This document shows, piece by piece, positions 55,960 to 57,200 of a DNA stretch of 64,000 nt; the stretch's first letter is position 1; each line of letters opens with the position of its first letter. Under the pieces are notes generated by a model that saw only the letters and a program-made list of their open reading frames with translations, searched no databases and was not told the origin of the DNA. Location of the stretch: positions 1,612,001 through 1,676,000 of the forward strand of contig NC_135830.1 of the NCBI RefSeq assembly GCF_964213995.1. Reading direction: 5' to 3'. Made by a program: the position numbers and the translations under genes. This DNA is from Mustelus asterias (lineage: Eukaryota).

Positions 55960-57200
55960 CATGCATTTTCCCACAACACTCTCCCCACTATCTGACGACT
56001 TGTGCGCACCCCCCCAGATCTCTGTATTCCTCCGGCTCTCTCTGCTTTCCTTCGGCTCTCCGCGCCTTTCTCCAATCATCAATGCTTCCACTAGATCTCT
56101 GCACTTGCCCCCAGCTTTCTGCAATTTCTCCCTCTCTTTGTACTTCCCCTTGCTCCCTGCGCATTCTGCCGTTTCTCCAATTTCCATTCACCGTCCCCGT
56201 TTCCGAAGCTTTTCCTGTGTTCTCTACGCATTTCCACGGCACTCCGTCCTTTCGCCTGGCGCGCTGTACCTTGCCCCGGTATCTGCTCTACCCCCGGCTC
56301 TATATGCTTTCTCTGACTCTCGGTGCTTCTACCCGTTCTCTGCAATTTCTCCCAGAACCCTGTGCTTTCACCTGGCTCCGTGAAGCGGTCTATCGCTCTG
56401 TCCTTCACCCATACTCTCCCTGCAACCATGCTCTCGGTGAGATTCCCCCAGGCTCGCAATGTTTTCACCACCTTTATTCGCCTTCCCTCAACAATCTGCA
56501 CTTTTTCCAAATTCTACGCAGTCCTCCGCAACAACCCCCGCCCCATCCCGCCCCCTCCCGCTCTCTTCGATTTTCCAAGGCTCTGTGCACTTTTGCTCGC
56601 ATCTCCCGCACTTTTCCCTCTCCCTGAAGTTCCCCGTTCTCTCTGGGTTTTCTGTGCTACCTCCACCTCCCCTGTGCATCCCACAGCTCTTTGCACGTTC
56701 GGCCGGCACTCTTTACTTTTCCCCACTCTCTGCGATTTCGCTGTCTCTCTACTCTTTTCACCAACCCTCCGCATTTTTCATTATCTGCAATTTCTTCTGT
56801 TTTCTACAATTTGCTTCCCCCTCACCACCGCCCCCCCGCCCCGCCCACCCCCCCCCCTTCCACGCTCCCCCCCCCACCACCCCCTACCACCCTCAGCCCC
56901 TCTCTCGTCGCTCTTTTTCCTGGGTTCCTCACTCTGCTCTCTGCGTTTTCACCCGGCTGATTGCTCTTTCCCCTACCTATTTGCACTTTCGCCTGCTTCC
57001 CTAGTCAACCCTGTTCTCTGCACTTTTCCTACGCTCTCTTCCCAAACCCCTGCCACATGACCGTCACGTTGTGCTTTCCCTCGGCTTACTGCCATATCTC
57101 CCTGCTCTCTGCTTTTCCCAGTCTCTTTCTATTCCCCCCATTTATGCTTTTCCCCATATCTGTGCGCTTGCTTTTGTTGATTGCATTTAACTTTCTCTCT
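55960..57200. repeat. Degenerate ~20-bp tandem repeat, pyrimidine-rich on plus and purine/G-rich on the IgH sense strand
   Basis: Recurrent TCTCTGCAYTTTYCC-like cores (about 56097, 56117, 56337, 56495, 57016) and C-runs at 56825-56900. Confidence 0.75.

Follow-up and report, generated by a model that had tools for sequence, protein, structure and literature searches.

The window, that is, the whole 64-kb stretch of DNA analyzed here, carries on its minus strand a mu-type immunoglobulin heavy-chain cluster, which we take to be a shark IgM cluster, both labels being drawn from the cluster layout and from characteristic sequence features. Solved relatives of its CH2 domain include the constant regions of Ig mu, epsilon, and alpha. 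All four CH exons are open: the Cmu1 exon (54649-54948, minus strand), whose frame has AG/GT borders, the Cmu2 and Cmu3 exon regions (54101-54448 and 52464-52790, minus), and the Cmu4 exon with its secretory tail (49157-49540, minus). The CH1 of this cluster is a singleton, the nearest CH1 being 75% identical. The J-Cmu intron (54949-64000, minus) extends past the window end by about 1 kb, as far as J, which lies 10.1 kb upstream of Cmu1; a V with joined D is found 0.4 kb beyond J, and J and V/D together occupy the stretch 1.0-1.9 kb past the window end. There (L021, 1000-1920) the cluster is germline VD-joined, with an open V leading into D and a 12-spacer signal, and with a J that bears a 23-spacer signal. 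The intron also holds a 250-nt inverted duplication (58790-59039 versus 59570-59819), whose arms are 96% complementary and separated by 530 nt. Elsewhere in the window, we found an intact single-exon frame for a rhodopsin-family 7TM receptor (Pfam 7tm_1; 6342-7304, minus) and a broken relative of it (37091-37724, plus).

Within the J-Cmu intron lies a degenerate, G/purine-rich minisatellite with a 20-bp unit (55960-57207, minus; family consensus GGGGAAAGGGCAGAGAGCCG). A sequence-only reading had described about 1.2 kb of degenerate repeats of roughly 20 bp, some 1 kb upstream of Cmu1, and the repeat proves real: it spans 1.24 kb with a period of 20 and has 24 recognizable units, and its 3′ end lies 1.0 kb before Cmu1 (exon start 54948) and about 8 kb after J, its start being 8.7 kb from the V leader. 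Within 55960-57200, autocorrelation is highest at a lag of 20 (0.404 versus 0.313 expected). A search with a 14-nt core, allowing up to 3 mismatches, recovers the 24 units at 56035-57207, where every match falls on the minus (IgH sense) strand; a further 23 matches elsewhere in the window are all scattered singles. TRF sees the array only in small pieces because 5.8 of the 20 positions per unit depart from the family consensus. The purine- and G-rich nontemplate strand with long G-runs was likewise confirmed: on the sense strand, purines make up 0.75 and G 41% of the bases, the GC skew is 0.51, and there are 50 runs of at least three G. Two G-run blocks are predicted to form G-quadruplexes, one at 56811-56905 (minus; G4Hunter maximum 3.3, with canonical motifs at 56831-56857 and 56867-56900) and another at 56523-56567 (minus; maximum 2.9). 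The further claim that nothing similar occurs in the window stands for the repeat and for the purine skew (asymmetry elsewhere reaching at most 0.62) but not for strong G-quadruplex motifs, since comparable G4Hunter scores occur at 48049-48119 and 28835-28887. Transcription through the array is predicted to favor R-loops and G-quadruplexes as a by-product. A coding role was rejected, two long plus-strand frames having given no Pfam match.

These features agree with a minisatellite. The tandem unit of 20 bp falls within the 10- to 60-bp range of this class, the copy number varies from 0 to 41 units among IgM loci and from about 75 to 270 in the young arrays described below, and the array is noncoding and diverges at the local neutral rate. 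As in the GC-rich, strand-skewed vertebrate minisatellites (VNTRs) in general, arrays of 0.5-5 kb change in length by whole units, variant units spread locally, and a single family includes both old, decayed and young, homogeneous arrays; unlike in that class, the old arrays here sit between J and Cmu in some 50 IgM clusters that arose by duplication. A literature search, beyond whose reach lay primary papers that may treat nurse shark J-C introns and junctions, returned no description of this 20-bp repeat family.

We counted 98 CH1-like loci of the window type in the genome, some of which may be two haplotypes of one locus, and examined 65 of them, over at least 4 kb upstream of CH1. Among the 61 loci of the IgM lineage to which the window cluster belongs, 51 carry at least 12 units, 5 retain a remnant of 4-9 units, and 5 have none; in all 56 loci carrying any of it, the array lies on the sense strand at a place like that of Smu. 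It is absent from the four divergent IgM clusters, the two IgW-like clusters (so labeled because of their V type, their spacing, and C domains other than mu), the three IgNAR-type clusters (one of the three confirmed by VNAR matches), and two mu-type clusters without a CH1 match. Nor does any of these clusters have a comparable G-rich zone, the highest G content in 600 bases being 0.29-0.35 in the IgW-like, IgNAR-type, and divergent IgM ones. In CH1 trees, the carriers fall in one clade with a support of 100/100 (43 of 47 rows in one tree and 28 of 32 in another), the remaining 14 of the 61 loci having been assigned to the lineage by CH1 identity, outside the trees. As the carriers form one CH1 clade, their recurrence counts as one inherited event. 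Hence, the expectation that an S-like element should recur in other IgM and IgW clusters is borne out in part: the array has the same place and strand in IgM clusters (51 of 61) but is missing from the IgW-like ones, and the IgM arrays go back to a single inheritance.

Most sister arrays measure 0.55-0.7 kb, with a 3′ end near -980 from CH1, and are preceded by a C-rich tract; after insertions and deletions, the distance to Cmu1 ranges from about -280 to -2200. Their units have 3.8 mismatches on average, versus 5.8 in the window array. In most sisters, the C-rich tract, of the CTCA type and 1.5-3 kb long, lies directly 5′ of the array (L041-L078, about -3500 to -1700 from CH1), so the G-rich strand flips at the border between the two. 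The window keeps two remnants of it (58916-59151 and 60199-60354, minus), and in L061 it contains telomere-like CCCTAA variants.

Copies of the repeat also occur outside immunoglobulin loci. An exact 18-mer of the unit has 758 matches in the genome (reversed control, 0), a search with one mismatch has 1898 (control, 1), and a variant pattern aimed at IgM-type units gives an uninformative four single matches genome-wide. Of the exact matches, 295 fall in nine arrays of 1.5-5.4 kb, and about 340 have no assigned place; among the matches listed, none precedes contig C27, and from this order we judge the family to be patchy rather than genome-wide. The nine arrays are young, with 1.1 mismatches per unit (in C27) and 0-7.5 WGCW per kb, and no Ig-domain match was obtained in the 20- to 60-kb stretches around them, where a light-chain control did match. 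Their flank is repeated in at least 40 copies with 98-100% identity (40 scored of 2195 candidates). When 20 further copies of this block were read for 3 kb each, two carried an array and 18 did not, which raises the number of non-Ig block copies with an array to at least 11 and disposes of the idea that every copy has one; in 14 of the 18, an unrelated 2.6-kb segment, which presumably ends in a LINE-like tail, lies between the same flanks in the array's place. The block itself is a high-copy unit on small contigs without a recognized gene (L084, L161-L180), in one subfamily of which the array replaces the 2.6-kb segment. We also rejected the possibility that it represents a gene or RNA family (no Rfam match in 140 kb, and Pfam matches in 2 of 102 frames, both under the cutoff), that the young arrays derive from a telomeric tract (no TTAGGG/CCCTAA block lies next to them), and that young and IgM arrays have flanks in common (short common-repeat matches only). 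With at least 11 young arrays in a block without nearby Ig exons, the unit is not specific to IgH loci.

Comparison between species bears on the age of the array and on its constraint. For organism B, contigs cover the array in full, and for organism C, they cover a part of it (X3 and X5 being one sample), and joints in these contigs that stem from other repeats were excluded. In and beside the array, the organism B ortholog differs at 63 of 1154 bases (5.5%) versus 113 of 2409 in three intron flanks (4.7%; p 0.32). Among the 33 listed of the 40 differences from organism B in 55960-56711, 6 fall in WGCW bases versus 4.0 expected; 5 of 22 WGCW sites are lost and 2 gained, and gains and losses of G on the sense strand are even (9 versus 8). 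In organism C, 1 of 9 differences is in WGCW bases, with 1.1 expected. The AID motifs of the array are therefore not spared, at the little power that 33 differences between species 3-5% apart afford. These data show that the array predates the split of the compared species and that it is unconstrained at this resolution. Real S regions also change fast.

Loss of the array is compatible with an intact gene. In the cluster on C479 (L059), V, D, and J are open with recombination signals and all four CH exons are open, and about 2.3 kb, including both the array and the C-rich tract, has been cleanly deleted; hence, the array is dispensable. The cluster on C128 (L056) has all exons open with four units left. 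Conversely, L160 keeps 27 units despite a stop in CH4. All six loci with a broken CH1 have at most 9 units, and such low counts occur in 4 of the 55 loci whose CH1 is open, which would fit an array retained for use; these six represent about three lineages, and three of them have had the whole upstream region replaced.

The sequence-only reading had estimated two dozen or more WGCW words, and we counted 35 in 55960-57200, namely, 19 AGCA, 13 TGCA, 3 AGCT, and no TGCT. In the test that this reading proposed, the number exceeds what is obtained in mononucleotide shuffles (mean 13.9; 0 of 2000 reach 35) and dinucleotide shuffles (mean 23.4; 4 of 2000). Relative to the window background of 25.0 per 1241 bp (sd 4.6), the excess is 1.4-fold, and the array bin ranks first among 51 non-overlapping bins, the next having 33, 33, and 33. 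WRCY/RGYW motifs, at 51/kb, are below the window mean of 57/kb. Richness in WGCW is no trait of the repeat family: the consensus has none, and 34 sister arrays of more than 400 bases have a median of 10.5/kb (range 5-29) versus a background of 20.2/kb. The consensus does have two GC cores that are one change away from WGCW. We simulated the decay of 62 consensus units under an assumed transition and CpG bias, in three sets of 25 runs. Neutral decay of this kind yields 25-26 WGCW per 1240 bp (sd 3-5.5; maximum 35 in each set) and retains the skew (G 0.39-0.43, purine 0.74-0.77), so that the observed count lies at the upper edge of the simulation, with fewer AGCT and more TGCA/AGCA than simulated. 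Units of the window array often have T at unit position 9, which creates TGCA; it is found in 12 of 25 units, versus 7-16% under simple decay. The WGCW beyond decay may be due to this variant, through either its spread or selection. Minisatellites commonly show such local spread of variants.

Because the array has a single origin, is dispensable, is not Ig-specific, owes its WGCW to no family trait, and displays no constraint, we propose that it is probably an aged and eroding member of a G-rich minisatellite family with a 20-bp unit, inherited as a passenger. It likely goes back to a single arrival in the J-Cmu intron, perhaps by capture or expansion of a unit, in the ancestor of one IgM lineage, and would have persisted neutrally, carried along as the clusters duplicated and then subject to decay and occasional deletion. 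The purine/G skew would be a relic of the unit's own sequence, and most WGCW words may have arisen from the two GC cores via CpG decay and other substitutions, with local spread of the TGCA-bearing unit variant probably helping to raise their number. Several observations sit less easily with a passenger: the Smu-like place and strand in all 56 carrier loci, a G content of 41-50% that lies within the range for R-loops, the 35 WGCW at the top edge of the simulation, the low unit counts of loci with a broken CH1, and the fact that, between the window cluster and its sisters, the array outlasts most of the alignable intron within 3.5 kb of Cmu1.

Most of those observations also bear on the principal alternative, a primitive S-like element, which we regard as unlikely. 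Under it, transcription from the V promoter would form R-loops or G-quadruplexes over the array, AID would nick AGC and GCA on opposite strands, and the breaks would join arrays of different IgM clusters, thereby moving a VDJ onto another Cmu. The consensus unit does provide one AGC on the top strand and one GCA. Like mammalian Smu and Sgamma3, the array lies in the J-C intron 5′ of the first CH exon, is tandem, and has a G-rich nontemplate strand with many G clusters, and Xenopus Smu offers a parallel of repetitive DNA before Cmu in an ectotherm. Unlike the mammalian regions, the arrays here are short (0.4-1.2 kb) and unrelated in unit sequence, with no partner element before other isotypes and no known promoter a few hundred bases away. 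According to PMC4245955, a G content of 35-50% supports R-loop elongation and mammalian S regions lie a few hundred bases after their promoter, its authors distrusting sequence-based prediction of R-loops; mouse hypermutation extends 1-2 kb from the promoter according to PMC2212980. The array, in contrast, is far from the sole known promoter, and reviews report no cryptic promoters in shark Ig loci. Dense AGCT, a trait of S regions, is lacking: the array has 2.4/kb, under the window mean of 3.4/kb, versus 77 and 22 for mouse Smu and Sgamma3 (7.68 and 2.19 per 100 bp of whole introns in supplementary table 1 of PMC9149575). For WGCW, the window copy, at 28/kb, comes near Sgamma3 (32.5/kb, versus 82 for Smu, whole introns; PMC9149575), though most sister arrays stay below their background. 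According to PMC9149575, a nearby enhancer can make Sgamma3 a strong donor in spite of its lower motif density, and a shortage of AGCT is thus not enough by itself to dismiss function.

Inter-cluster isotype switching in the nurse shark is said to have been described by Zhu in 2012 and Zhang in 2013. The locus is of the same kind, and arrays held in common would give the IgM clusters a joint target. The reviews PMC4279169, PMC8201067, PMC4588147, and PMC5192425 report such switching between shark clusters, its guidance being left unexplained in the first three, which also state that sharks lack conventional S regions (PMC5485518, PMC12227049, and PMC2435157 provide general background). Switching is reported without S regions and alongside hypermutation, and in PMC4279169, it proceeds between IgW and IgM in both directions, which tells against the S-like reading, as the IgW-like clusters examined have no array. 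The failure to spare WGCW between species and the intact cluster on C479 weigh in the same direction. Thus, of the proposal of a candidate primitive S-like or AID-targeting element, the physical likeness survives in the G-rich nontemplate strand, and the function is unsupported. A convergent version, in which a minisatellite captured at the Smu place turned the arrays of about 50 clusters into R-loop- or G-quadruplex-forming AID targets guiding switching between IgM clusters, appears to us similarly improbable; were it true, the window copy, the longest and the richest in WGCW, would come closest to the tetrapod design.

We also considered, and hold to be slightly less probable again, that the arrays are unselected stretches of fragile, shared homology, at which repeats prone to G-quadruplexes or R-loops break or slip so that deletions and exchanges, germline or somatic, end there more often. 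Several separate germline deletions do have an endpoint within the array or next to it (L059, the L056 group, L074/L117, and L118), and the replacement of the 2.6-kb segment in the non-Ig block is what template capture at a break might produce. Moreover, 23 IgM clusters compared from -8200 to +730 relative to CH1 display mosaic ancestry along the intron, the distance matrices of the upstream intron, the last 560 bases, CH1, and CH2 being poorly correlated, as would be expected if clusters often exchange sequence around Cmu1-Cmu2. Against this stands the position of the breaks in ancestry: across those 23 clusters, the sharpest change is at -660/-560 (rho 0.05) and around CH1/CH2 (0.09-0.30), with 0.24-0.47 across the array; these values, noisy and from short segments, do not show a recombination hot spot in the array. 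The organism B ortholog is also colinear, with unit-scale indels only (deletions of 21 and 10 bases and an insertion of 26). Least probable is a cis-regulatory element of the mu transcript, such as a polymerase pause or a purine-rich enhancer or splicing element, retained close to the Cmu1 acceptor. Although the orientation is fixed and the distance fairly constant in most clusters, that distance varies several-fold overall, intact clusters lack the array (C479 and C71:1563401), and divergence between species is neutral.

If the array is a passenger, it constitutes a useful negative, in that a G-rich repeat can reach the Smu place by chance and multiply as clusters duplicate, and that shuffle-based WGCW tests overstate such repeats. 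In either case, it is a fixed, primer-accessible target common to about 50 IgM clusters for asking how sharks aim switching, with natural controls in the array-deleted clusters, the IgW-like clusters without an array, and the non-Ig arrays of the same 20-bp unit. Should junctions map to it, this would explain the aiming of shark inter-cluster switching and illustrate the birth of S regions from minisatellites.

Further observations concern the makeup of other clusters. L131 (C71:17384401 on) is germline VDJ-joined with a stop in V; the first C match within 8 kb is CH3-like, and no CH1 or CH2 match was found over that distance. In the near-identical pair L056/L144 (C128) and L069 (C71:7.32 Mb), the first is VD-J with intact signals and the second has D joined to J out of frame, a difference that would reflect either germline joining or somatic joining caught in the assembly. 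Finally, L079 (429-725)/L101 (C71:1563401 on) combines mu-type CH1-4, with a CH4 76% identical to that of the window, with a V that resembles the IgW-like V (58%) more than it does IgM V (42-46%), and it is possible that this cluster is a germline IgW-V/mu-C chimera or that it retains an old V family.
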